Virus genome (UHGV): UHGV-1420800
Strand: one strand, 5' to 3'
Source of the DNA: a virus
DNA: 24,301 bases
Shown one piece after another: positions 1 through 24,301 of the stretch. Positions within the stretch are counted from its first letter, which is position 1, and every line of letters starts with the position of its first letter. The position numbers were made by a program, and so were the translations under genes. The notes below the pieces were generated by a model. The model was given only the letters and a program-made list of their open reading frames with translations. It did not search any database and was not told where the DNA came from.

Positions 1-44
1 ATAGCGTAGCGTCTCGTGGGCTCGGAGATGTGTATAAGAGACAG
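1..44. other. Library adapter: reverse complement of Nextera/Tn5 mosaic-end read-through adapter (CTGTCTCTTATACACATCTCCGAGCCCACGAGAC, 11-44) preceded by about 10 nt of index-like sequence
   Basis: Positions 11-44 read gtctcgtgggctcggagatgtgtataagagacag, the exact reverse complement of the Nextera adapter; the forward form recurs at the other end of the window. Not biological sequence. Confidence 0.9.
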
Positions 45-432
45 CTCTAATACTGACGTATTAGAGAGTGCCACAGCAGACAAAAAGTCTGACAAGAAAA
101 AACCTTCCGTTAGCTGTCAGGATGTTGTCGATGCTTACCACGAAATCCTTCCTGAAGCGCCAAGAATCCGCGCACTGAATGACAAGCGTAAAAACCAGAT
201 CCGAACGTTCTGGCGCAAAGCCGGAGTGATAACCCGCCAGCTTGACGGGCATGGGTTCACGATGCAGGACTGGAGAAATTATTTGAGCTACGTAGGCGAA
301 AATTGCCGATGGATGTTCGAAGAGCGTCCAAACCATCAACGCGGAACCGTCTGGCACAAAAAGGGATTTGATTTCCTGCTTAACGACAATACCTACCTGA
401 AAGTTCGTGAGGGTGAACACGATGACCGATAA
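45..432 (+). CDS. Phage replication initiation protein (O-like / replisome organiser), C-terminal fragment; 5' end missing at contig/adapter boundary
   Basis: Open frame from the first genomic base to TAA at 430-432, immediately upstream of and overlapping the DnaB-like helicase, as in lambdoid replication modules. The Met at 16 in the ORF track is adapter-encoded. Family assignment is by position and recalled conserved C-terminal motif only. Confidence 0.55.
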
Positions 433-2162: not shown

Positions 2163-2172
2163 AGGAGTGAGC

Positions 2173-2379
2173 ATGACAAATCAGGAGCAAATAGAGTTCA
2201 TCCTTGAGCAGATCCGAAAAATGCGAGAAAAGAACCAGCCAGACATGATGGAAATATGGAGACGCCAGCAGGAAGAATACCGCAAGCATATTTTTGGTGA
2301 GAGAAAACAGGATGAATGGAGCCTATATGACTATGGCACCAGGACAAATAAAAACGGATATAGCCTTTACACATATTGA
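2173..2379 (+). CDS. Hypothetical protein (68 aa)
   Basis: ATG 2173 preceded by GAAGGAG at 5 nt; its stop overlaps the NinB RBS. No family recognised. Confidence 0.5.
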   Translation: MTNQEQIEFILEQIRKMREKNQPDMMEIWRRQQEEYRKHIFGERKQDEWSLYDYGTRTNKNGYSLYTY

Positions 2380-7318: not shown

Positions 7319-7758
7319 TAGCGATAATTCTACTCATCATCCTTCACATCTGGCTCTGTAGACAGGGTGGTGATCACTTCTGGAGTGAATCCAGATTAAA
7401 CATCTCATTGCTGATGCTTGAAGTTGAGCATCTGGCGCGCGGTAAGGGGCTGCGTTGAGATAAGAGCCAGTTCATTACAAATCCTATCTACGGGTGGGCT
7501 TGATAATGAAACCGGAGTTAATTTCTGGTCACTAATTAACGGCAGTACAGCGAAACAACCCAAGCCAGTAAGCGGGGAAATAACACTGGCAGCCACTGAA
7601 AGATGAACCTCCTGCCTTATGGCAAAAAAGATTCTTTGTGGTGGCGGACTGATGGAAAGACATCGGATAGAATCAAGCAGTGGCTAGGGTAGTTCCCGAA
7701 AAGCGGACTCGTCACCGCCTGCCACTGAATCTATGGCGAACAACTAGACGAGGTTGTG

Positions 7759-8367: not shown

Positions 8368-8655
8368 ATGACTGAACAAGAAATGCCGAGATACCAGTGC
8401 CACAAAAAAGTTCGCGCCCTGAAGATTGGCTCTATAGAACATAAGCCAAACCCAGATCAGTCTGGTAAGACTGGCTCTTCTAGTTATGGGGCAATTATTC
8501 ATCCGGATGATAAGAAATACGCAGCATTTGATGTTAGCGCGGAATATATCTGTAAGCACCGACCAATGTCTGGAGGCTATTACGTTGTCTATGAGGATGG
8601 ATATGAATCATATTCTCCTGCTGAGGTATTTGAGTCTGGATATTCAAAATTATAG
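8368..8655 (+). CDS. Hypothetical protein (95 aa, Tyr/Gly-rich C-terminus)
   Basis: ATG 8368 with GGAG upstream, 4 nt after the stop of the preceding ORF; no family recognised. Confidence 0.5.
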   Translation: MTEQEMPRYQCHKKVRALKIGSIEHKPNPDQSGKTGSSSYGAIIHPDDKKYAAFDVSAEYICKHRPMSGGYYVVYEDGYESYSPAEVFESGYSKL

Positions 8656-9355: not shown

Positions 9356-10832
9356 TAACCTGAGCGACGAAGAGCAAATCGAATTGCTCGAGCTACTCGA
9401 AGAAGAAGAAAACTACCGGAACACACACCTGCTATATGAATTTACGCCATACAGCAAACAGCGTGAGTTCATCGACGCCGGGCATGACTATCCAGAGCGC
9501 TGCTTTATGGCTGGTAACCAGCTTGGTAAGTCATTTACTGGTGCTGCTGAAGTCGCGTTTCACCTTACCGGGCGTTATCCGGGAACAAAAGGCTATCCGG
9601 CTGATGGTAAATATGGCGGGGAGTGGAAAGGTAAGCGTTTCTATGAGCCTGTTGTCTTCTGGATTGGTGGCGAGACAAACGAGACTGTAACCAAAACGAC
9701 TCAACGCATCCTGTGCGGTCGTATTGAAGAGAATGATGAGCCTGGCTACGGTTCCATACCGAAAGAGGACATCATTAGCTGGAAGAAGTCTCCTTTCTTT
9801 CCGAACCTTGTTGATCATCTTCTGGTTAAGCATCACACGGCTGATGGCGTTGAAGATGGCATTTCAATCTGCTACTTCAAACCATACTCGCAAGGCCGCG
9901 CTCGCTGGCAGGGTGACACAATCCACGGCGTGTGGTTTGACGAAGAGCCACCATACAGCATTTATGGCGAAGGCCTTACCCGTACCAACAAATACGGGCA
10001 ATTCTCAATTCTGACGTTTACCCCGCTGATGGGGATGTCTGACGTTGTTACCAAGTTCCTGAAGAATCCCAGCAAGTCGCAGAAAGTGGTCAACATGACC
10101 ATCTATGACGCTGAGCACTATACCGACGAGCAGAAAGAGCAAATCATCGCATCCTATCCAGAGCATGAGAGAGAGGCTCGAGCTCGAGGTATTCCTACGA
10201 TGGGTAGTGGTCGAATCTTCCAGATACCGGAAGAGACGATTAAGTGTCAGCCGTTCGAGTGTCCTGATCACTTCTACGTAATTGGCGGTATGGATTTCGG
10301 ATGGGATCACCCACAAGCGCAGGTTCAGCTTTGGTGGGATAAGGACGCAGACACAATCTACGTTTCACGCGTGTGGAAGGCGAAAGAAAAAACAGCCGTT
10401 CAGGCATGGGGAGCGGTTAAATCATGGGCGCATAAAGTGCCAACAGCATGGCCTCATGACGGAAACCAGCATGAGAAGGGCGGCGGTGAGCAGCTCAAAG
10501 GGCAGTATGCAGACGCTGGTTTTATGATGTTGCAGGAGCATGCGACATGGCCTGATGGCGGTAATGCTGTGGAGCCTGGCATCACTGAATTGCGCGACAT
10601 GATGCTCGATGGTCGCTTCAAAGTATTCAACACCTGTGAGCCATTCTTTGAGGAGTTCCGCCTCTATCACCGTGATGAAAACGGGAAGATCGTCAAGCTT
10701 AACGACGACGTTCTCTCAGCCGTTCGCTATGCATACATGATGCGCCGCTTCGCAAAAATGATGCGCGACATCAAAAAACCAAAAGAGAAAAAGATACCAG
10801 CCCCAATCAGGCCCATCGCACGGAGAACTTAA
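9333..10832 (+). CDS. 2: Terminase large subunit (P22 gp2-like; ATPase and nuclease)
   Basis: 499 aa, same length as P22 gp2; acidic N-terminus, ATPase-type motif region (GNQLGKS), position between gp3 and portal. Confidence 0.9.
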
Positions 10833-12998
10833 ATGGCCGACGAAAACAGACTCAATTCCATTCTGTGTAAGTTTGACGCGGACTGGATGGCGAGCGATGA
10901 AGCCAGAACCGAGGCGACAAATGACCTGTATTTTAGCCGAGTGTCGCAATGGGATGACTGGCTATCAAACTACACGACCCTGCAATATCGCGGACAATTC
11001 GATGTTGTTCGCCCGGTGGTCAGGAAACTGGTCGCAGAGATGCGCCGGAACCCTATCGACGTTCTCTTCCGACCAAAAGACGGCGCTAATCCTGATGCTG
11101 CCGATGTGTTGATGGGAATGTATCGTACCGATATGCGCCATAACACGGCAAAGATTGCCGTTAACGTTGGAGTTCGTGAGCAGATAGAGTCCGGCGTTGG
11201 TGCATGGCGTCTGGTCACCCAGTACGAAGACAACGACCCAACAAGCAACAATCAGGTAATCCGACGCCTTCCAATCCATGAAGCCTGCTCACACGTCATA
11301 TGGGACGCCAACAGCAAGCAGATGGATAAGAGCGACGCTAAGCACTGCACGGTGATTAACGCCTTGTCGCGCAATGGCTGGAAAGAGTTCGCAGAGGATT
11401 ACGGTATTGATCCTGACACCCTGCCATCTTTCCAGAATCCGAACGACACATGGCTGTTTCCGTGGGTATCGAATGATGTCGTCTACGTCGCTGAGTATTA
11501 CGAGGTAGAAGAGAAGAAGGAGAAAGTCTTCATCTACCGCGACCCGCTGACAGGTGAGCCGGTCAGCTATTACCAGCAGGATATCAAAGACGTCATCGAC
11601 GACCTGGCTAATCGTGGATTCATTAAGGTAGCAGAGCGCAAGGTGAAGCGTCGGCGTGTGTATAAGTCGATCATCACCTGCACGCAGATACTGAAAGACC
11701 GCGAGAAGATAGCCGGAGAGCATATTCCAATCGTTCCAGTGTATGGCGAATGGTCATTCGCTGGTGACAAGGAGTGCTACGAAGGAGTGGTAAGGCTGAC
11801 GAAAGACGGTCAGCGCCTTCGTAACATGATCATGTCATTCAACGCCGATATTGTTGCTCGTTCACCGAAGAAGAAACCGACCTTCTTCCCAGAGCAAATC
11901 GAAGGCTACGAATACATGTACGGTGGAAATGATGACTATCCGTACTATTTGCAGAACAAGACCGATGAAAACGGTAACGACCTGCCGATTGGTCCAATCT
12001 CCTACATGGAAAACCCTGAAGTGCCGCAAGCCAACGCTTACATGCTTGAGGCTGCCACCAACGCAGTGAAAGAGGTGGCTAGTCTTGGCGTGGATGCGCA
12101 GGCGGCAAACTCTCAGGTCGCTTTCGATACCGTCAATCAACTGAACATGCGGGCAGACCTTGAGACATACGTGTTTCAGGATAACCTGGCTACCGCAATG
12201 CGACGTGATGGCGAGATTTATGCCTCAATGGTCAATGATATTTATGACGTTCCTCGTCATGTAACGCTGACACTTGAAGATGGAAGCGAGAAAGACGTTC
12301 AACTCTATGCGCAAGTTGTCGATTACCAGTCCGGCAATGTGGTCACACTCAACGACATTCGCGGTCGCTATGAGTGCTATACAGACGTCGGACCATCCTT
12401 CCAGAGCATGAAGGAACAGAACCGCGCAGAGATTCAGGAGTTGCTCACCAAGGTTCCGCAAGGTACTCCAGAGTTCCAGATGCTGATGCTGCAATACTTC
12501 ACGCTGCTTGACGGTAAAGGCGTCGAGATGATGCGAGAGTACGCGAACAAGCAACTGGTGATGATGGGGCTGAAGAAACCAGAAACACCTGAAGAGATGG
12601 AGATGGTACAACAGGCGCAACAGCAGCCGCAGCAGCCATCAGCAGAGCAAATTCAGGCGCAGGGTATCCTTCTGCAAGGTCAGGCTGAATTGCTCAAGGC
12701 AGAGAACCAACAGGCGCAGATTCAGGTTGAAGCTGCCAAGGTTGAAGCACAAAACCAACTCAACGCGGCGAAGATTGCGGAAATCTTCAACAATATGGAC
12801 CTCGACAAGCAGGCAGAACTGCGTGAGTACCTCAAGCTCGTAGGTCAATTCCAGCAACAGCGCAGCAAAGATGCTCGTGCTAACGCTGAGCTGCTTCTTA
12901 AAGATGCAGACCAGACTCATTCACAACGCATGGATTTCGCGAATCTTATGCGTCAAGTTCAAATCCCCTCCGGCGGAGTAGCCGAGACACCTCAATAA
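10833..12998 (+). CDS. 1: Portal protein (P22 gp1-like)
   Basis: 721 aa; Q/A-rich C-terminal coiled-coil region (QQAQQQPQQ...[16 protein letters not shown]) typical of the P22 portal barrel; sits immediately after the terminase. Confidence 0.95.
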
Positions 12999-13011
12999 GA
13001 GAGAGTTAATC

Positions 13012-13923
13012 ATGGACCAAACCACCGACATTCAGGCTTCTGAAGAATTAACCCTGCCCGGCAATCATGCAGCGGCATCTGCTGATGGCTTAGTTGTCGA
13101 TAATGCCAACGACAACGCAGGTCAGGAAGAAGGCTTCGAGATTGTCCTGAAAGACGATGAGAAACCAAAACAAGACCCGGCAACTAATGCTGAATTTGCC
13201 CGTCGCCGCATCGAACGCAAACGCCAGCGTGAGCTTGAGCAGCAGATGGAAGCAGTTAAGCGTGGAGAGTTGCCGGATCACCTGCGGGTGAACCCTGAGT
13301 TACCAAAACAACCAGACCCTAACGATTATCTTTCCGAAGATGCACTGGCTAAGTACGACTATGACCAGAGCCGCGCACTGGCTGCCTTCCAGCAGGCAAA
13401 CAGTGAATGGCAGATCAAGGCTATGGACGCACGAAGCCAGGCTGTCGCCGAGCAGGGTCGCAAAACTCAGGAGTTCACCCAGCAATCAGCGCAATACGTC
13501 GAGGCAGCCCGTAAGCACTACGACGCAGCGGAAAAGCTCAATATCCCTGACTATCAGGAGAAAGAGGATGCATTCATGCAACTGGTGCCGCCAGCAGTCG
13601 GTGCCGACATCATGCGCCTCTTCCCGGAGAAATCCGCTGCTCTCATGTATCACCTTGGTGCTAATCCTGAGAAAACACGCCAGTTGCTGGCGATGGACTG
13701 GCAATCCGCGCTGATTGAACTCACTCGACTGTCAGAACGTTTAACTCTCAAGCCTCGAGCCAAGCCTGTTTCAGAAGCCCCGTTACCTGATGAACCCATT
13801 CAGGGACACGCTGTTGCTGCAAATATCTCTGCGATTGAAAAGCAGATGGAAGCGGCAGCAAACAAAGGGGATGTAGAGACATACCGCAAGCTCAAGGCGC
13901 AACTGAATAAAGGAATTCGATAA
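13012..13923 (+). CDS. 8: Scaffolding protein (P22 gp8-like)
   Basis: 303 aa (same as P22 gp8), highly charged helical protein; conserved C-terminal coat-binding region recognised ([16 protein letters not shown]...[16 protein letters not shown]). Confidence 0.9.
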
Positions 13924-15218
13924 TGGCATTAAATGAAGGTCAACTGGTCACGTATGCTCTGGATGAAATCATCGAAACCGTCCAGAACCTGACGCCAATG
14001 GCGTCCAAAGTGACAAAATACACCCCTCCGGCAGAATCCATGCAGCGTTCAAGCAACACCGTGTGGATGCCTGTTGAGCAGGAAGCGCCAACCCAGACTG
14101 GCTGGGATTTAACTGGCAACGCAACCGGGATTCTGGAACTCTCCGTGAAATGCAACATGGGCGATCCGGATAACGATTTCTTCGAGCTTCGTGCAGATGA
14201 CCTGCGTGATGAGCGTTCTTACCGTCGCCGCATCCAGGCATCCGCCAAAAAACTGGCGAATAACATTGAGTCAGCGATTGCCAAACAGGCAACTGAAATG
14301 GGCTCGCTTGTTGTTCACGATACCCGCGCAATTGGTCCATCTACTGGCCTGTCTGGCTGGGATTTTGTGTCTGATGCAGAGCGCCTGATGTTCTCCCGTG
14401 AGCTAAACCGCGATATGGGCATCAGTTACTTCCTGAACCCTGACGATTACCGCAAAGCAGGCCGCAACCTGGTAGATGGTGACATCTTTGGGCGCGTTAC
14501 TGAAGAAGCGTATCGCAACGGTACTATTCAGCGTCAGATTGCTGGCTTTGATGAAATTCTTCGCTCACCGAAACTTCCGGCAGTTACCAAGTCAACCGCT
14601 ACTGGTGTAACTGTTTCTGGTGCGCAGAAGTTTAAGCCGCAGGCATACACCCTTGATACCGATGGTAACAAAGAGAACGTCGATAACCGTGTTGCAACGG
14701 TGACCGTATCCTCCACCACCGGATTTAAGCGCGGCGACAAAATCAGCTTCACTGGTGTGAAATTCCTGTCTCAGATGGCGAAGAACGTGCTGACTGATGA
14801 TGCGACTTTCTCAATCACCCGTGTGATCGATGGTACTCACATCGAAATCACGCCGAAGCCGATTGCGCTGGATGACGCGTCACTGACAAAAGAAGAGAAG
14901 GCTTACGCTAACGTAAACACCTCTCTTGCTGATAGCACTCCGGTAAACGTTCTGAACGTGGCAACAACCACCGCTAACGTGTTCTGGGCTGATGACTCAA
15001 TCCGTCTGCTGTCTCAGCCGATCCCGGTAACCCATGAACTGTTTGCTGGCATGAAAACGTCTTCCTTCAGCATTCCTGGTATTGGTGTTAACGGCATCTT
15101 CGCAACGCAGGGTGATATCAACACTCTGTCTGGTAAGTGCCGTATTGCTGTGTGGTATTCAGCATGTGCTGTACGACCAGAGGCAATTGGTGTTGGTCTG
15201 CCTAACCAGACTGCGTGA
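13923..15218 (+). CDS. 5: Major capsid (coat) protein (P22 gp5-like, HK97 fold)
   Basis: 431 aa; MALNEGQ... N-terminus and many recognisable P22 coat stretches ([45 protein letters not shown]). Confidence 0.95.
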
Positions 15219-15224
15219 TAACCA

Positions 15225-15250
15225 GAGGGAGCTTCGGCTCCCTTTTTTAT
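15225..15250 (+). terminator. Intrinsic terminator downstream of coat gene
   Basis: gggagc-ttcg-gctccc hairpin (6-bp stem, UUCG tetraloop) at 15227-15242 followed by TTTTTT. Confidence 0.75.
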
Positions 15251-15262
15251 CTGGAGACAAGC

Positions 15263-15494
<232 letters not shown>

Positions 15495-15517
<23 letters not shown>

Positions 15518-15995
15518 TTTAGTTCTTGCGGCATTACGTAAGCTCGGTGTGGCATCAAATGCCACGTTAACCGATGTCGAACCGCAGTCTATGGAAGACG
15601 GCGTCAACGACCTTGAAATGATGATGGCGGAATGGCTTGGCGGTGATGCGTCACCAGGTATCAACGTTGGCTACATTTTCGCTGATGCAGATGTCGCTCC
15701 AGATCCGGGCGATGAGCACGGTTTATCAAATAACGCTATCAATGCCGTCATTTTCAACCTTGCCTGCCGCATTGCTCCAGATTATGCGCTGGAAGCTTCT
15801 GCAAAACTTATAACCACTGCCAGATACGGGAAAGAGCGACTCGTCAAACTGTCTGCAATGGACAGAGCAAAAGCCGCTAAATGTAAGTCTGGTTATCCAA
15901 ACCGTATGCCTGTTGGTAGCGGTAATCAGTTGGCGAAGTGGAACGGTTGGAATTACTTCCACCGGAAGGAACCTTGCGATAACGGGAGCGAATAA
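15495..15995 (+). CDS. 4: Head completion / tail accessory factor gp4 (P22 gp4-like; portal-binding, reported muralytic activity)
   Basis: 166 aa from ATG 15495: [33 protein letters not shown]..., recognised as P22 gp4; AAGG-type RBS upstream. The ORF track start at 15402 would add an SQ-repeat extension, which is judged unlikely. Confidence 0.85.
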
Positions 15996-17414
15996 ATGCC
16001 GATTCAGCAACTTCCGCTTATGAAAGGTGTCGGCAAAGACTTTCGAAACGCCGACTATATCGACTATCTGCCAGTGAATATGTTGGCTACACCCAAAGAA
16101 ATCCTGAACAGCAGCGGATATCTTCGCTCATTCCCGGGCATTGCCAAACGTTCTGATGTGAACGGCGTATCGCGCGGCGTCGAGTACAACATGGCGCAGA
16201 GTGCTGTTTATCGCGTGTGTGGTGGCAAGCTCTACAAAGGAGAAAGTGAAGTCGGTGATGTTTCCGGAAGTGGTCGTGTATCAATGGCGCATGGTCGGAC
16301 ATCTCAGGCGGTTGGCGTTAACGGGCAACTGGTCGAGTATCGCTATGATGGCACGGTTAAAACCGTCTCAAACTGGCCTACAGACAGCGGATTCACGCAG
16401 TATGAGTTAGGCTCAGTCCGCGACATTACGCGCTTACGTGGGCGTTATGCGTGGTCAAAAGACGGAACTGATTCATGGTTCATCACTGACCTTGAAGACG
16501 AATCGCATCCTGACCGCTACAGCGCACAATATCGTGCAGAATCGCAGCCTGACGGCATCATTGGCATCGGAACATGGCGAGACTTCATCGTCTGTTTTGG
16601 TTCATCGACGATTGAGTATTTTTCCCTGACGGGTGCAACCACCGTTGGTGCTGCTTTGTATGTCGCACAGCCATCTCTTATGGTGCAGAAAGGCATTGCC
16701 GGAACTTACTGCAAAACGCCATTCGCTGATTCTTATGCGTTCATCAGCAATCCGGCAACGGGTGCACCGTCTGTATACATCATTGGCTCCGGGCAGGTGT
16801 CACCAATCGCCAGCGCGAGCATTGAGAAAATCCTCCGCTCCTACACTGCTAATGAACTGGCTGATGGTGTAATGGAATCGCTGCGATTTGATGCGCATGA
16901 GCTTCTGATTATCCATCTTCCGCGTCACGTCCTTGTGTACGACGCATCTTCAAGCGCCAATGGTCCTCAATGGTGTGTGCTGAAAACAGGGCTGTATGAC
17001 GATGTGTACCGCGCTATCGACTTCATTTACGAAGGCAATCAGATAACGTGCGGCGATAAGCTGGAATCGGTTACCGGCAAATTGCAGTTCGATATCAGCA
17101 GCCAGTACGACAAGCAACAGGAACACCTGCTGTTTACTCCACTGTTCAAAGCGGATAACGCCAGAGTGTTCGACCTTGAGGTTGAATCGTCAACTGGCGT
17201 TGCGCAGTACGCCGACCGCCTGTTCCTCTCTGCAACCACTGACGGCATAAATTACGGTCGTGAGCAGATGATTGAGCAGAATGAACCATTCGTTTACGAC
17301 AAACGCGTTTTGTGGAAGAAAGTAGGGCGCATCAGGAAAAACATTGGTTTCAAATTGCGCGTTATCACGAAGTCACCTGTCACTCTGTCTGGCGCTCAGA
17401 TAAGGATTGAGTAA
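15996..17414 (+). CDS. 10: Tail accessory factor gp10 (P22 gp10-like)
   Basis: 472 aa, same length as P22 gp10; in the conserved order 4-10-26. Confidence 0.9.
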
Positions 17415-18262
17415 TGGCGGATTCGAATCTCAATGTGCCGGTAATCATCCAAGCTACGCGGCTCGATACATCAGTCCTTCCACGCAATATCTTCTCGCAG
17501 TCGTATCTGCTTTACGTTATCGCACAGGGCACTGATGTTGGTAACGTGGCTAACAAGGCCAACGAGGCCGGACAGGGCGCTTATGACGCACAAGTCAGGA
17601 ACGATGAGCAGGATGTGATTCTCGCTGACCATGAGCAGCGAATTTCTGCTGCGGAAGCAACGCTTGTTAATCATGAGGAGCGAATCAGCCAGGCAGAATC
17701 AACTCTTCAGGAACATGAAACACGAATAGCTCAGAATGAAAGCGATATTGCGTCTCTTGATACCAGAGTTCAGTCGCTCGAATCGCAGGTTTCAGACCAT
17801 GAAACGCGCATCGATGCTCTGGAGTATGCCACTACTCGCAAAAAGTCAGAGGTTGTTTACTCTGGCGTATCTGTAACCATCCCGACAGCGCCGACCAACC
17901 TTGTTAGCCTGCTGAAAACGCTCACTCCGTCATCCGGCACGTTGGCACCGTTCTTCGACACCGTTAACAACAAGATGGTTGTGTTCAACGAGAACAAAAC
18001 CTTGTTCTTCAAGCTGTCGATCGTCGGGACGTGGCCCAGCGGAACCGCCAACAGGTCAATGCAGCTAACCTTTTCCGGCTCTGTTCCTGACACACTGGTA
18101 AGCAGTCGCAACTCGGCGACAACAACCGATAACATCTTGTTAGCTATGTTCTTCAGCGTGGATAAAGACGGCTTTCTTGCCACAAATGGCAGCACGTTAA
18201 CCATTCAGTCAAATGGTGCGGCGTTTACTGCCACAACCATCAAGATAATCGCGGAGCAGTAA
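17414..18262 (+). CDS. 26: Tail needle protein (gp26 family) with non-P22 C-terminal domain
   Basis: N-terminus [43 protein letters not shown] matches the P22 gp26 gp10-binding tip; followed by a trimeric coiled-coil with repeated HE-RI motifs and a roughly 140-aa C-terminal domain unlike P22's. At 282 aa it is longer than the 233 aa I recall for P22 gp26. Confidence 0.8.
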
Positions 18263-18717
18263 TGATTCAGTTCAAACCAACGCGAAACATCGACCTGATC
18301 GAAGCAGTCGGAAATCACCCTGACATTATTGCCGGAAGCAACAATGGTGATGGATACGATTACAAGCCTGAATGCCGTTACTTTGAGGTTAACGTGCACG
18401 GTCAGTTTGGCGGCATTGTTTACTATCAGGAGATTCAGCCGCTGACATTCGATTGCCACGCCATGTACCTGTCAGAGATTCGCGGCTTCAGCAAGGAAAT
18501 CGGGCTGGCGTTCTGGCGATACATTCTGACTAACACCACCGTTCAGTGCGTCACATCGTTCGCTGCGCGCAAATTCCGCCACGGTCAGATGTACTGCGCA
18601 ATGATTGGCCTTAAGCGTGTAGGAACCATCAAGAAATACTTCAAAGGCGTGGATGACGTGACGTTTTACAGCGCCACACGCGAAGAACTAATCGACTTCC
18701 TGAATCACGGGAGATAG
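18262..18717 (+). CDS. gp14-like virion assembly/ejection-associated protein
   Basis: 151-aa ORF in the slot occupied by gene 14 in P22-like phages (between tail needle and ejection proteins); assignment by synteny only. Confidence 0.5.
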   Translation: MIQFKPTRNIDLIEAVGNHPDIIAGSNNGDGYDYKPECRYFEVNVHGQFGGIVYYQEIQPLTFDCHAMYLSEIRGFSKEIGLAFWRYILTNTTVQCVTSFAARKFRHGQMYCAMIGLKRVGTIKKYFKGVDDVTFYSATREELIDFLNHGR

Positions 18718-18719
18718 CT

Positions 18720-19412
18720 ATGTTATATGCATTTAAGCTGGGCAGAAAACTGCGCGGCGAGGAACCTTATTGCCCTGAAAAAGGCGGGAAAGGTGGCAGC
18801 TCTGATAAAAGCGCAAAGTATGCAGCAGAAGCTCAGAAGTATGCCGCAGACCTGCAAAATCAGCAGTGGCAGACGATCATGAAAAACCTTGCTCCGTTCA
18901 CGCCGCTTGCGGAGCAGTATGTTAACCAGCTTCAGAATCTTTCCAGTTTAGAAGGTCAGGGGCAGGCACTTAATCAGTATTACAACTCTCAGCAGTATAA
19001 AGACCTTGCAGGTCAGGCGCGTTACCAGAGTCTTGCTGCTGCGGAGGCGACGGGTGGACTTGGTTCGACAGCCACAAGCAATCAACTGGCTACGATCGCG
19101 CCGACACTCGGTCAGTCTTGGTTATCAAATCAGATGAGCAATTACAACAATCTGGCAAACGTTGGGCTTGGTGCGCTGCAAGGTCAGGCAAACGCCGGGC
19201 AGACGTACGCCAACAACATGAGCAGCATTGCACAGCAAAGCGCAGCACTTGCCGCTGCTAATGCCAATAAACCATCAAGTCTTCAGACTGCAATTAGCGG
19301 CGGCACGTCTGGTGCGATTGCCGGTGCAGGTCTTGCCAGCCTTTTGGGAACATCAACGCCTTGGGGCGCTGGCATTGGTGCTGGTATCGGATTGCTTGGC
19401 TCGTTGTTTTAA
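18720..19412 (+). CDS. 7: Ejection (internal virion) protein gp7-like
   Basis: 230 aa; N-terminus MLYAFKLGRKLRGEEPYCPEKGGKGG recognised as gp7 type; Gly/Ala-rich hydrophobic C-terminus. Confidence 0.85.
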   Translation: MLYAFKLGRKLRGEEPYCPEKGGKGGSSDKSAKYAAEAQKYAADLQNQQWQTIMKNLAPFTPLAEQYVNQLQNLSSLEGQGQALNQYYNSQQYKDLAGQARYQSLAAAEATGGLGSTATSNQLATIAPTLGQSWLSNQMSNYNNLANVGLGALQGQANAGQTYANNMSSIAQQSAALAAANANKPSSLQTAISGGTSGAIAGAGLASLLGTSTPWGAGIGAGIGLLGSLF

Positions 19413-19421
19413 GGGGTAATC

Positions 19422-20753
19422 ATGGCTACTTGGCAAGGATCAAATGGCGGATTGTTAGCTGGTATCGGCGGCGTCAACTCAAACGCTCCGAGCGTAAATG
19501 ACATCGGCAATACGCTTCAGCTTATCAGGCAGAACAATGATATTGAGCGTTCAGGCGCTAACAATGTTGGGCTTACTGCTTTGCAAGGCCTTTCAGGCAT
19601 TGCAGGGGTGTTTCAGCAGGAAAAGCAGGCTCAGCGGCAGAAAGAATTTCAGCAGGCGTACGCTAATGCTTATGCGTCTGGTGATCGCGGTGCTTTGCGT
19701 CAGTTGGCTACTCAATATCCAGACCAGATTGAATCCGTCCGTAAAGGCATGGGGTTCATTGATGAAGACCAGCGTAATTCTATCGGCACCTTAGCGGCTG
19801 GCGCACGCCTTGCGTCATCGTCTCCAGAAGCAATGCAATCATGGCTGCAAAACAACGCCGGTGAGTTAGCTCGTGTTGGCGTTAATCCTCAGGACGTCGC
19901 TCAGATGTACCAACAGAACCCGCGGCAGTTCGGCGAATTTGTCGATCACCTGGGGATGAACAGTCTCGGACCCGAAAAATACTTTGACCTACAGGATAAA
20001 ATGCAGGGTCGCCAGGTTACCATGCGCGGTCAGGATCTGGATTCGCAAACCGCCGCTCGGAATCAGGCAATCACAATGCGCGGGCAAGATATCCAGGCGA
20101 ATTTAGGTCAGCAGCGCATTAATCTGGACGCAGAAACAAACCGCATTAACAACGAAAATAAGCGCCTTGACCGGATGCTATCAGCAGAAACTAACGACCT
20201 GAAGCGCCAGGAAATACAGAGCCGCATAGCAGCCAACAACCAGCAGTTGCAGCAGAAGCAGCAAGCGCTAAATGATGGCTACAAAGACGGCATCAACACC
20301 CTCACAACCAGCATGTTCACTCTGAACGATATCGTTAGTTCTCCTTCACTTAAGAGCATTACAGGCTTACGTGGAGTAATCCCCAACGTTCCAGGCTCAC
20401 AGGCTGCAGACACTCAGGCACGACTTGATACCTTTAAATCCCAAGCATACCTGACAGCGGTTCAGGCCATGCGAGGCATGGGCGCACTTTCTGATGCCGA
20501 GGGCAAAAAGCTCGACCAGGCTGTTGGTTCGCTGCAGAACTCGCAGAGCGAGGAGTCCTTTCGTCGCAACGCTGGCGTCATCCTGAACACGCTCAACCAG
20601 AAGCGTAATGAGGCGGTTGGTAAGTACGTTCAGCAAAACGGTATCAAGCGAGTGGAAGCGCCTCAGGCTTCTATAGATTACCTGAAGCAACACCCCGAGC
20701 TGTCAATCGACTTCATTAATCGCTACGGATATCTTCCATCTTTGGGGCAGTAA
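19422..20753 (+). CDS. 20: Ejection protein gp20-like
   Basis: 443 aa, Q/N-rich, in the conserved 7-20-16 order; stop is adjacent to the start of the next gene. Confidence 0.85.
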   Translation: MATWQGSNGGLLAGIGGVNSNAPSVNDIGNTLQLIRQNNDIERSGANNVGLTALQGLSGIAGVFQQEKQAQRQKEFQQAYANAYASGDRGALRQLATQYPDQIESVRKGMGFIDEDQRNSIGTLAAGARLASSSPEAMQSWLQNNAGELARVGVNPQDVAQMYQQNPRQFGEFVDHLGMNSLGPEKYFDLQDKMQGRQVTMRGQDLDSQTAARNQAITMRGQDIQANLGQQRINLDAETNRINNENKRLDRMLSAETNDLKRQEIQSRIAANNQQLQQKQQALNDGYKDGINTLTTSMFTLNDIVSSPSLKSITGLRGVIPNVPGSQAADTQARLDTFKSQAYLTAVQAMRGMGALSDAEGKKLDQAVGSLQNSQSEESFRRNAGVILNTLNQKRNEAVGKYVQQNGIKRVEAPQASIDYLKQHPELSIDFINRYGYLPSLGQ

Positions 20754-23147
20754 ATGGCTAATTACCGTGATTTGTTAGAGCAGGCTGGCGCACGTTACGG
20801 TGTGCCAGAAGGGTTGATGACTGCACTGGGTGCCAAGGAGTCTTCTTACAACCCTGCCGCAGTAAGCTCCGCCGGGGCTGTAGGATTGACTCAGGTCATG
20901 CCTGGGACATGGCGTGATATGGGTTATACCGATGAGCAAATGCAAAACCCCGAATATCAGGCTGACGCTGGCGCGCGCTATCTGGCAAAGATGTACCAGC
21001 AGTTTGGTAACTGGCGTGACGCTCTTCAGGCTTATCACGACGGTCCCGGCAACGTTATGAAGGCAAAGCGTGGTGAATATACGCCAGGGCCTGAAGGCCG
21101 CGGTTACGTTGATGATCGCTTTGCTCAATGGGCGGGTGACCCGGTGACAGACTCAACAGTAGAACAGCGCGCCACCTCTGCAAAGGTACATCCTCAGCAA
21201 GACCCTAACAACCCGTTTGCACAACTGGAAGCACAGTCATCCGAACAAGTATCGGCATCAGGCGTGCAGTCAGACCCAAATAATCCATTTGCTCAGATTG
21301 AGCAGCAGGCAGCCAGTCAGCAGCCACCTCAACCCGTAAGTTCTGTCGCACCGAAACCTGTTCAGCAGCAAGGCGGAATAATGTCTGACCTTGGTAATGG
21401 ACTTGCTGAAACCGGGCGCGGCTTACTACAGGCAGGAATCAACGTAGCGAACATACCTGCTGAACTCACTGATGCTGTAACAAGCGCGGCGGCTTGGGCT
21501 GGCGGTAAACTCGGCATTGGCGATGGTACATATCAACCAGCACCACGAGTAACAACGCAGGGATTAGAGCAGGACTTTGGCCTTCAGCAAGGCGCGCTGA
21601 CTCCACAAACGACAGAGGGAAGGGTATTTGCTGAAGCATTGCCTTACCTCACTCCTGCTGGCGTTGAGAGAGCGGCAGCACAGGCACCAACACTTGCTGG
21701 TCGAATTGCTCAGGGGGCAACTCGCCTTCTCGCAGAAAACGCAGTTGGATCACTTGCTGCAAACAGTGCGAAAGATGATGCGGAAGCACTCGCCACCGAT
21801 TTAGGCGTTGGTGTGCTGGCTGGCGGTGCTATTAACGCTGCCGGACGTGGATTAGGTGCTGCTTATCGTGGTGTTCGTGGTTCGATAGCACCAGAAGCGC
21901 AACAGGCTATCAGATTTGCAGAACGTGAAGGAGTTCCTCTGCACACCACAGACCTGTTACAACCCATTTCCCGCGTCGGAAAAATGGCGCAGACGACAGC
22001 GGAAAATATCCCCCTGGCTGGCACAAGCGGAATGAGAGCAACGCAACAGGAAGCGAGAAGCCAGTTGGTGCAGAGATTTGCTGATAAATTCGGTGAGTAT
22101 GATCCAGCTGTTGTTATTGACAGCCTTAAAGCGAAAACATCAGGAATTCGTCGTGCTGCAGGGAACCGTCTTGAGCAGGTTCAGAATGCTATGGCGGGAA
22201 TAAACATTCAGCCTGCAAGAGCAATTCAGCAGATTGATACAGAAATATCTAACCTGCAGAAGCTTGGTAAGGTTGCTGATAACGAGACTATTTCAAAACT
22301 TCAGTCCTATCGTGATGAGCTTGTTCGCAATGCTGGTCCTGATGGTCCGGTAAATCTGGATTTGAAGCAATTAAGCGATCTGCGCAGCCAGTTCAGAATG
22401 GACGTGAAGGGGGAGCGACCAGTGTTACCAAACCGTTCCGATGCTGCCATTCAGCGCGTTTACAAGGCAATGACCGACGATATCAATGGTGCCATTGGTC
22501 AGAATCTTGGCAACGATACTCTCCGTAAATATCAGCAGGCCAATGCCGTCTACGCTGACGAAGCGGCGAAACTAAAGAATACCAGGCTGAAGAATGTTCT
22601 CATGAAAGGCGACCTGACGCCGGAAGTTGTCAACAACATGCTATTCAGCAAGAACAAATCGGAAATTAAGACGCTGTATAACTCAGTTGGTCGTGTTGGC
22701 AGGGCGCAAATGCGCAATGGCATCATTGGAAAGGCGATGGAGAAATCAGGTGGTTCCCCTGACCAGTTCCTTCGACAGCTTAACATCCTGCAAAACCAGA
22801 CTGGCATCACATTTAAAGGTCAGGAAGCCGCTTATCTGAAAGGATTGAAAAACTACCTGCAATCCACGCAGCAGGCTGCAAAAGCGGCAGTAACAACACC
22901 AACAGGGCAGCAAACCATCCCGTTCATTATCGGATATGGGACAGCAATGAACCCTGCGACAACTGGCGCAGCGGTAAGCTACGGACTTCTTACTCGCGCC
23001 TATGAGAGCGAGCCATTCAGAAATGCAATGCTCCGAATGGCAAACACCCCACGCGGATCAACAGCGTTCGAGAAAGCCATGCAGCAGGCACAAAAGGCCA
23101 TTAACGCCCTGACTCAGGGGGCTAAGTCTGATGCGCTGTCAGAATAG
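20754..23147 (+). CDS. 16: Ejection protein gp16-like with N-terminal soluble lytic transglycosylase (SLT) domain
   Basis: 797 aa. Residues about 20-100 carry the SLT signature ...AKESSYNPAAVSSAGAVGLTQVMPGTWRDMGY...YLAKMY...AYHDGPG (catalytic Glu in the ES motif). The rest is Ala/Gly/Gln-rich like E proteins. Confidence 0.8.
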   Translation: MANYRDLLEQAGARYGVPEGLMTALGAKESSYNPAAVSSAGAVGLTQVMPGTWRDMGYTDEQMQNPEYQADAGARYLAKMYQQFGNWRDALQAYHDGPGNVMKAKRGEYTPGPEGRGYVDDRFAQWAGDPVTDSTVEQRATSAKVHPQQDPNNPFAQLEAQSSEQVSASGVQSDPNNPFAQIEQQAASQQPPQPVSSVAPKPVQQQGGIMSDLGNGLAETGRGLLQAGINVANIPAELTDAVTSAAAWAGGKLGIGDGTYQPAPRVTTQGLEQDFGLQQGALTPQTTEGRVFAEALPYLTPAGVERAAAQAPTLAGRIAQGATRLLAENAVGSLAANSAKDDAEALATDLGVGVLAGGAINAAGRGLGAAYRGVRGSIAPEAQQAIRFAEREGVPLHTTDLLQPISRVGKMAQTTAENIPLAGTSGMRATQQEARSQLVQRFADKFGEYDPAVVIDSLKAKTSGIRRAAGNRLEQVQNAMAGINIQPARAIQQIDTEISNLQKLGKVADNETISKLQSYRDELVRNAGPDGPVNLDLKQLSDLRSQFRMDVKGERPVLPNRSDAAIQRVYKAMTDDINGAIGQNLGNDTLRKYQQANAVYADEAAKLKNTRLKNVLMKGDLTPEVVNNMLFSKNKSEIKTLYNSVGRVGRAQMRNGIIGKAMEKSGGSPDQFLRQLNILQNQTGITFKGQEAAYLKGLKNYLQSTQQAAKAAVTTPTGQQTIPFIIGYGTAMNPATTGAAVSYGLLTRAYESEPFRNAMLRMANTPRGSTAFEKAMQQAQKAINALTQGAKSDALSE

Positions 23148-23236
23148 CTTCGCAAACACCATGAACGTGCAAAAACCAAATATGTAGAACGCAATATTCA
23201 GCATATCTCTGTGCATAAATCCTCCGTAACGGATGG

Positions 23237-23497
23237 TTATCTGCTGTCTTTTTTATATAGCTTCTTGAGCGTATCAAAGACAATTTTCTTAACCATATCA
23301 GATTGTTGTTCTGCCATACGCTCTGCATCGTCAATGTAAACTGATGCAGAGCTTTGTTTATCCAATGATTCCTCAATCGCTGCAATTATCTCTGAGTTCA
23401 GCGACCTGTTATTCATCTTCGCACGCTGCTTAATTTTCGAGTGGAGTTCATGCGGAAGTCTCAAGTGAAACTGCGCCTCGTCGTATTTGCTGTACAT
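23237..23497 (-). CDS. mnt: Mnt-like repressor (Arc/MetJ ribbon-helix-helix family)
   Basis: Reverse-strand ORF; from Met12 (RBS AAGGA upstream) 86 aa: ...QFHLRLPHELHSKIKQRAKMNNRSLNSEII...DDAERMAEQQSDMVKKIVFDTLKKLYKK, closely resembling P22 Mnt (RHH N-terminus, C-terminal tetramerisation helix). Alternative start at 23530. Confidence 0.8.
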   Translation of the reverse strand: MYSKYDEAQFHLRLPHELHSKIKQRAKMNNRSLNSEIIAAIEESLDKQSSASVYIDDAERMAEQQSDMVKKIVFDTLKKLYKKDSR

Positions 23498-23618
23498 CCT
23501 TGATGCCTCACCAGTTGGGTGGAATGGCATCGTAACCTACTGGATAAATACTCAATAGTACCATTTCGGTATGCAATCACATCATGGTTGCATCATATCA
23601 TTCGTCTGGAGCAATGAA
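23498..23618. promoter_or_regulatory. Divergent control region between mnt and tailspike, containing inverted repeats (candidate operators)
   Basis: Inverted repeat ATGCAA-N11-TTGCAT at 23571-23593 and a shorter TACT-caat-AGTA at 23549-23560; AT-rich; must carry the leftward mnt promoter and any rightward tailspike promoter. Exact promoter elements not resolved. Confidence 0.4.
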
Positions 23619-24276
23619 ATGTCAGATATCACCGCAAATGTTGTGGTAAGCATGCCTTCGCAACTCTTCACTATGGCTCGTTCTTTTAAAGCCGTAGCCA
23701 ATGGCAAAATTTATATCGGTAAAATTGACACTGACCCGGTAAACCCTGAAAACCAGATTCAGGTTTATGTGGAGAACGAAGATGGTTCTCACGTTCCTGT
23801 TTCGCAACCAATCATCATTAACGCTGCTGGATATCCGGTATATAACGGACAGATTGCCAAGTTCGTAACTGTGCAAGGCCATTCTATGGCTGTTTATGAT
23901 GCGTACGGTGTGCAGCAGTTCTATTTTCCGAATGTGCTGAAGTACGACCCTGATCAATTTCGAAGTGAGCTGTCTGAAGAAGATGGTGCAACTAAAATTG
24001 GATACTTGGCCGGTACAGTAGCGGATAGTTTGTCATATTGGGCAACGCCAGAGCAATATGGAGCAATTGGAGATGGTGTAGCTGATGATACAGTGGCGGT
24101 GACTAATGCTATTATGACTGGAAGATGCCTCATGAAGAGAGGTTCCACATATCGTATGGTGATGAATGAGGAAAATGTCATCACTCCCCCAGCTGGTGCA
24201 TATATTGATTTTAACGGTGCTAGAATAACTCATGAGAAAACTGGGTACCTTGTTTTTCTTAACAAAAACCAAGACG
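23619..24276 (+). CDS. 9: Tailspike protein, 5' part (P22 gp9-type head-binding domain followed by a beta-helix/pectate-lyase-like receptor-binding domain); 3' end cut off by contig end
   Basis: ATG 23619 (GGAG 8 nt upstream): [43 protein letters not shown]...[10 protein letters not shown] matches the conserved P22-like tailspike N-terminal domain. Then ...[24 protein letters not shown]..., a motif typical of right-handed beta-helix glycanases. Frame is open to the adapter junction. Confidence 0.9.
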
Positions 24277-24301
24277 CTGTCTCTTATACACATCTCCGAG
24301 C
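24277..24301. other. Library adapter: Nextera/Tn5 mosaic end CTGTCTCTTATACACATCT plus CCGAGC (start of read-through adapter)
   Basis: Exact match to the Nextera transposase adapter, mirror image of the sequence at 11-44. Confidence 0.9.

Follow-up and report, generated by a model that had tools for sequence, protein, structure and literature searches.

Throughout this report, the window is the whole 24,301-nt stretch of DNA that was analyzed. Its bulk, positions 45 to 24276, is genuine DNA of a P22-like (Lederbergvirus) phage or prophage of E. coli, beginning midway through the replication gene and ending at codon 219 of the tailspike gene; the sequence on either side of it, 44 nt on the left and 25 nt on the right, is that of an Illumina Nextera adapter (Table 1). 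Phage IME10, a P22-like member of Lederbergvirus, matches positions 45 to 23956 at 96.8% over 84% of the window and has the same gene order: a gp18/O-like replication gene, a DnaB-like helicase, nin genes, Q, lysis genes, terminase, portal, scaffold, and coat, continuing with gp4/10/26/14/7/20/16, Mnt/Arc, and the tailspike. In contrast to IME10, the contig covers no more than about 24 of ~40 kb, and the receptor-binding part of its tailspike represents a different allele, one that a few E. coli assemblies also carry. The real part is also collinear with P22-like prophages (coverage, 79 to 82%; about 97% identity), the match falling into seven pieces in a pattern of typical mosaicism, and one further assembly (L133) covers positions 10759 to 24276 in one piece at 98.8%. 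We saw no sign of an internal chimera within the window, and no tRNA genes were found there.

Pfam families were recognized in small early genes (DUF7301, NinB, NinX, and NinG), in two small ORFs located 3' of the lysis genes (DUF551 and DUF2560), and in the minus-strand gene that precedes the tailspike (Arc/Mnt); the ORFs at 8368 to 8655 (+) and 2167 to 2379 (+), encoding 95 and 70 aa, respectively, had no significant Pfam family. An Rfam match to int-alpA RNA (RF02996) lies at window positions 7677 to 7739 (+), with a score of 42.3 bits against a gathering score of 35.8 (E = 8.5e-6), and sits between the Rz lysis gene and the DUF551 ORF, upstream of the terminase genes.

Table 1. Adapter components, truncated genes, and adapter-derived gene calls at the two ends of the window
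Feature	Position	Strand	Basis or remark
Last two bases (AT) of the Illumina P7 flow-cell sequence CAAGCAGAAGACGGCATACGAGAT	1..2	+	44/44 exact match to P7 + N709 + Read-2 adapter; primer in PMC10323015
i7 sample index AGCGTAGC (Nextera N709 / Ad2.9; sequencer reads GCTACGCT)	3..10	+	Sole fit among 12 indices
Nextera Read-2 transposase adapter, pointing into the insert	11..44	+	Direct reading and exact match
GTCTCGTGGGCTCGG, part of the Read-2 transposase adapter	11-25	+	Exact match
19-nt Tn5 mosaic end AGATGTGTATAAGAGACAG	26-44	+	Exact match
Artifactual public gene call, 134 aa, MCIRDSSNTDV...	28..432	+	Same frame as ORF 16..432
3' fragment of P22 gp18 / lambda O-like replication gene	45..432	+	Codons from 46; residues 169-296 of 296
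5' fragment of tailspike gene: head-binding domain and start of receptor-binding domain	23619..24276	+	Residues 1-219 of 707
Spurious 86-aa ORF antisense to tailspike	24033..24293	-	ATG (24293-24291) inside adapter
Same adapter, opposite orientation (as in Read-1 read-through)	24277..24301	-	Mosaic end 24277-24295, then CCGAGC 24296-24301

Adapter sequence at the two ends

Read directly from the contig end, positions 1 to 44 are ATAGCGTAGCGTCTCGTGGGCTCGGAGATGTGTATAAGAGACAG and reproduce without mismatch the final 44 nt of a construct made up of one Nextera i7 index primer and the mosaic end, in which the P7 tail AT, the index AGCGTAGC, and GTCTCGTGGGCTCGGAGATGTGTATAAGAGACAG follow one another in that order. 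An exact-match script identified positions 11 to 44 as GTCTCGTGGGCTCGGAGATGTGTATAAGAGACAG, the reverse complement of CTGTCTCTTATACACATCTCCGAGCCCACGAGAC, and positions 24277 to 24301 as CTGTCTCTTATACACATCTCCGAGC, which matches the first 25 nt of the adapter's reverse complement at 25 of 25 positions. The first-pass annotation had described both termini as Nextera adapter, with an exact reverse complement at 11 to 44 and its forward form at 24277 to 24301; the script agrees with that reading, and the identification is borne out by exact matches of 44/44 and 25/25 to sequences given in PMC3906532 and PMC10323015.

Bases 1 to 10 (AT plus AGCGTAGC), which the first-pass annotation had not accounted for, are likewise synthetic and consist of the P7 tail and the N709 index, N709 alone among the 12 classic i7 indices giving a 44/44 match of P7 tail, index, and adapter to the window start. 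The corresponding primer, Ad2.9_GCTACGCT, is printed as CAAGCAGAAGACGGCATACGAGAT-AGCGTAGC-GTCTCGTGGGCTCGGAGATGT (PMC10323015), the Nextera adapter sequences are named, together with the Read-2 primer site, in PMC3906532, and the index-adapter junction GATAGCGTAGCGTCTCGTGGGCTCGG occurs within oligonucleotides printed in 23 papers. The Read-2 primer site, CCGAGCCCACGAGAC, adjoins the mosaic end; all 15 nt of it are present at the left end (11 to 25), and at the right end the contig stops after the first 6 nt.

There are exactly two exact copies of the mosaic end, CTGTCTCTTATACACATCT, in the window, at 26 to 44 (-) and 24277 to 24295 (+), and the 19-nt sequence did not occur in 100 dinucleotide-preserving shuffles of the window (chance expectation, 0); the exact-match script found no adapter 12-mers elsewhere in the window. 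The two copies form an inverted repeat with arms of 26 nt (20 to 45 and 24276 to 24301) rather than 25 nt because the first real bases, C45 and G24276, happen to be complementary, and both of these bases agree with real genomes.

Gene calling is affected at both ends. The first-pass annotation had held that ORF callers place spurious starts in the adapter, and mechanical ORFs do exist at 16 to 432 (+), with a GTG start, and at 24033 to 24293 (-), with an ATG start. This claim is correct, and an adapter-started protein is indeed public, but its gene was called from ATG 28-30 and not from GTG 16-18, and exact look-up in the public protein collection found neither the GTG-started product nor the reverse ORF product, nor the adapter-tailed tailspike fragment. 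The public protein, whose exact sequence (MCIRDSSNTDV...) is recorded as JGI/IMG 'hypothetical protein' P0121 from one contig of 24301 nt, a length equal to that of the window, has a start codon and first five and two-thirds codons that are adapter, and six of its residues (MCIRDS) are wholly or partly adapter encoded. A literature search for the peptide MCIRDS found no papers. The tailspike gene, when read through into the adapter, gains the false residues AVSYTHLR.

The junctions and the truncated end genes

The segment that aligns with real genomes has its exact limits at 45 and 24276, in agreement with the first-pass annotation, which had taken this interval as the genuine sequence and had attributed the shortened replication and tailspike genes to assembly and not to biology; the second of these points is upheld by intact copies of both genes in other genomes. 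On the left, 382 records of complete E. coli genomes match the first 1200 bases of the window, and the listed matches begin at base 45, which is the match start also in nine further loci and in the phage matches listed that reach the left end (e.g., IME10). Base-by-base alignment of BEN2908 and IME10 at the adapter site of the window revealed ...GGTTGTCCAACGGTTGTCCAACGGTTGTCCATAAACAATAATATAAATAATAT joined directly to CTCTAATACTG..., and real genomes possess iterons and an AT-rich tract in place of the adapter. The gp18/O-like replication gene comprises 891 nt in both BEN2908 and IME10, and window positions 46 to 429 encode 128 residues of which all 128 are identical to residues 169 to 296 of the 296-aa BEN2908 protein WP_000539336.1; the end of the contig cuts off the 168 codons that precede these. 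The fragment encoded by 46 to 429 had no Pfam match.

Inside the real replication genes, three tandem GGTTGTCCAAC-type iterons are followed by a 25-nt tract with 12% GC (L001:1450-1500 and L002:2950-3000), directly upstream of the base homologous to window position 45, and to judge from the sequence this arrangement looks like a lambda-type origin inside an O-like gene. The left break of the contig coincides exactly with the end of the 12%-GC tract, and low Tn5 coverage of the origin may thus have contributed to the break.

At the right end, the nucleotide match of most relatives stops near 23960, at the boundary between the head-binding domain and the variable receptor-binding domain of the tailspike. 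Positions 23957 to 24301 had no nucleotide match among phages, and only three records of complete E. coli genomes matched them, at 98.6 to 99.7%, diverging at 24244. Assemblies spanning the right junction were found via contigs that encode an identical gp16 protein. Five independent assemblies match positions 23600 to 24276 (L126 and L133 at 100%; L128, L131, and L132 at 99.85%), the alignments of all five stop at 24276, and all five run on past the junction as ...AACCAAGACG followed by TATCTATAATTAAC.... The real continuation reads ...NKNQD-VSIINFNGVYKG..., in frame, within a 707-aa tailspike ORF that is intact in the five assemblies, and the window therefore holds residues 1 to 219 of 707.

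The assignment of this fragment to a tailspike is supported by PF09008 head-binding matches, and the fragment has 97% amino acid identity to the 710-aa GB089 tailspike. The last 32 bases before the adapter are in frame and show protein-level similarity to the GB089 type (GFLVFMNRNPD), which argues for real sequence past the mosaic boundary. We considered a chimeric origin of these 32 nt and rejected it, given that the stretch is in frame, similar at the protein level, and 100% identical in L126 and L133.

The window's tailspike allele is rare. Exact-pattern scans of genome, viral, and metagenome contig collections, with the final 34 or 24 genuine bases as the pattern, returned no matches, and the contig itself is thus absent from these collections. 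The exact allele is present in 5 of the 10 shown assemblies with an identical gp16 (L126, L128, and L131 to L133). Two mosaic boundaries are apparent in the tailspike gene, at window positions 23960 and 24244; the GB089-type allele departs at 24244 but is homologous at the protein level. In L126, L128, and L133 the 707-aa ORF (12866-14989) is intact but missing from the called genes, whereas the gene lists of L131 and L132 do include it, and its omission probably reflects a gap in the stored gene tables and not biology.

When the complete tailspike fragment served as a protein query, the matches were mostly to head-binding domains, with P0001 as the best match, and a search with the receptor-binding fragment alone gave no significant match. 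P0001 derives from ~1-kb Logan contigs that end before the right junction. Two independent Logan assemblies, ERR11041212 and SRR16329119, carry a 2-bp deletion at a C-run (L124:~940 and L125:~931, homologous to window positions 24190-24191; CCCC--GCTGG compared with CCCCCAGCTGG) that frameshifts the tailspike to yield the 195-aa product P0001; both Logan contigs end at the same position, and the deletion may represent either a pseudogene allele or an artifact of assembly.

Origin of the terminal sequence

Both termini are almost certainly synthetic library DNA from Illumina Nextera (Tn5 tagmentation) preparation that was carried into the contig by the assembler. We infer the steps of read-through and assembly from the sequence pattern together with established knowledge of Nextera libraries, in which short inserts place adapter at the ends of reads and de novo assembly can be affected (PMC3906532). 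Some Nextera inserts would have been shorter than the read length, in which case Read 1 would leave the insert and proceed through the mosaic end, the Read-2 primer site, the i7 index, and P7, and untrimmed reads of this type would let the assembler extend the contig along the adapter path. As the adapter would be attached to thousands of different inserts, the assembly graph would be unresolvable beyond it, and the contig would consequently stop there. The left end would derive from a minus-strand Read 1 that ran 44 nt beyond its insert, as far as N709 and two bases of P7, and the right end from a plus-strand Read 1 that contributed 25 nt; the same Read-2-side adapter at both ends points to two unrelated short fragments, read from opposite strands, and not to one library molecule. 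If this explanation is right, the true path over 44/45 would lead from ...AATAATAT directly into CTCTAATAC..., and that over 24276/24277 from ...CAAGACG directly into TATCTATAAT.... Compared with read-through contamination in Nextera and Nextera XT libraries, the window has the same mosaic end, Read-2 primer site, i7 index, and P7 tail in the same order; there is no difference of substance, and what is particular to this contig is the presence of the Read-2-side adapter at both ends.

The mosaic end is itself an engineered derivative of the natural 19-bp ends of IS50 (Tn5), and the two copies in the window are inverted relative to each other, like the ends of a transposon, so that the termini could be read as those of a natural Tn5/IS50 transposon or of another mobile element inserted in the phage. 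We regard this as highly improbable: no base of the 19-mer departs from the engineered mosaic end, compared with 3 mismatches to the IS50 outer end and 4 to its inner end, and the mosaic end is followed by flanks that are synthetic, namely, the Read-2 primer site, a kit index, and the P7 tail. Moreover, the arms point inward, and the element would have to be the whole phage segment, which is collinear with P22-like phages; no transposase gene was seen among the gene products of the window, and the gene sequence of related genomes is uninterrupted at both sites. Less probable still, to the point of being negligible, is a reading of the window as a complete linear phage genome with the inverted repeat as its true inverted terminal repeat (ITR). 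A perfect inverted repeat of 26 nt does lie near both ends, and such repeats serve as a completeness signal for viral contigs, but the left arm is offset by 19 nt from the extreme terminus, and a strict terminal test fails at 10 to 25 nt. Both terminal genes are truncated, the contig is 24.2 kb in length compared with ~39 to 43 kb for the related phage genomes listed, and the repeat is absent from relatives at both junctions. P22-like phages use headful packaging and are not known to have ITRs.

A third reading accepts the adapter as synthetic and differs on its route, holding that it was introduced after assembly, by a chimeric join, scaffolding, or a submission artifact, and not by read-through of untrimmed reads. 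Other routes of entry do exist, as illustrated by the sole listed case of the adapter inside a long contig, L014:3701-3734 (IMGVR_UViG_3300010234_000504; 190,684 nt), where the nearer end of the retrieved stretch is thousands of bases away and the position suggests a chimeric join through the adapter. In the window, however, the adapter is terminal only, points inward, and runs into index and P7 in the exact order of a read-through read, and no internal adapter k-mers were found; entry after assembly is very improbable here.

Within the explanation that we favor, read-through of untrimmed Nextera reads, the break points are perhaps non-random, although we consider this rather unlikely. The left break lies directly after the iterons and the 12%-GC tract, and the right break lies 32 nt past the tailspike mosaic boundary; the two ends might mark a collapse in coverage, brought about by Tn5 bias against an AT-rich origin or by several tailspike alleles co-existing in the sample, with adapter-bearing reads winning the extension. 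If true, this would concern the behavior of the assembly and not new biology.

Consequences for annotation and extent of the artifact

The terminal adapter is an ordinary, well-known technical artifact and not a biological feature, and the value of the finding lies in data hygiene. A total of 69 bases, 1 to 44 and 24277 to 24301, are to be masked, and both end genes are to be annotated as partial, at <45..432 and 23619..>24276. The inward-pointing adapter at both ends constitutes a near-terminal inverted repeat that is artificial, and in contigs with both arms at the termini an adapter repeat of this sort might mimic an ITR and inflate completeness calls.

Nextera adapter contamination is widespread in IMG/VR, with the 34-nt adapter present in at least 120 contigs. 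Among the matches listed there are 124 copies of the 34-mer, of which 123 point inward and are no more than 80 nt away from a contig end, the geometry displayed by both copies in the window, and 98 of 102 copies have the P7 tail before the index. The kit indices that precede the adapter in the listed IMG/VR contigs include N702, N712, N705, and others, with AGCGTAGC in four. Also among the matches listed, four IMG/VR loci of 5 to 14 kb (L008, L065, L108, and L110) have the adapter at each end. A single dataset (3300045988) accounts for about two-thirds of the adapter-bearing contigs listed.
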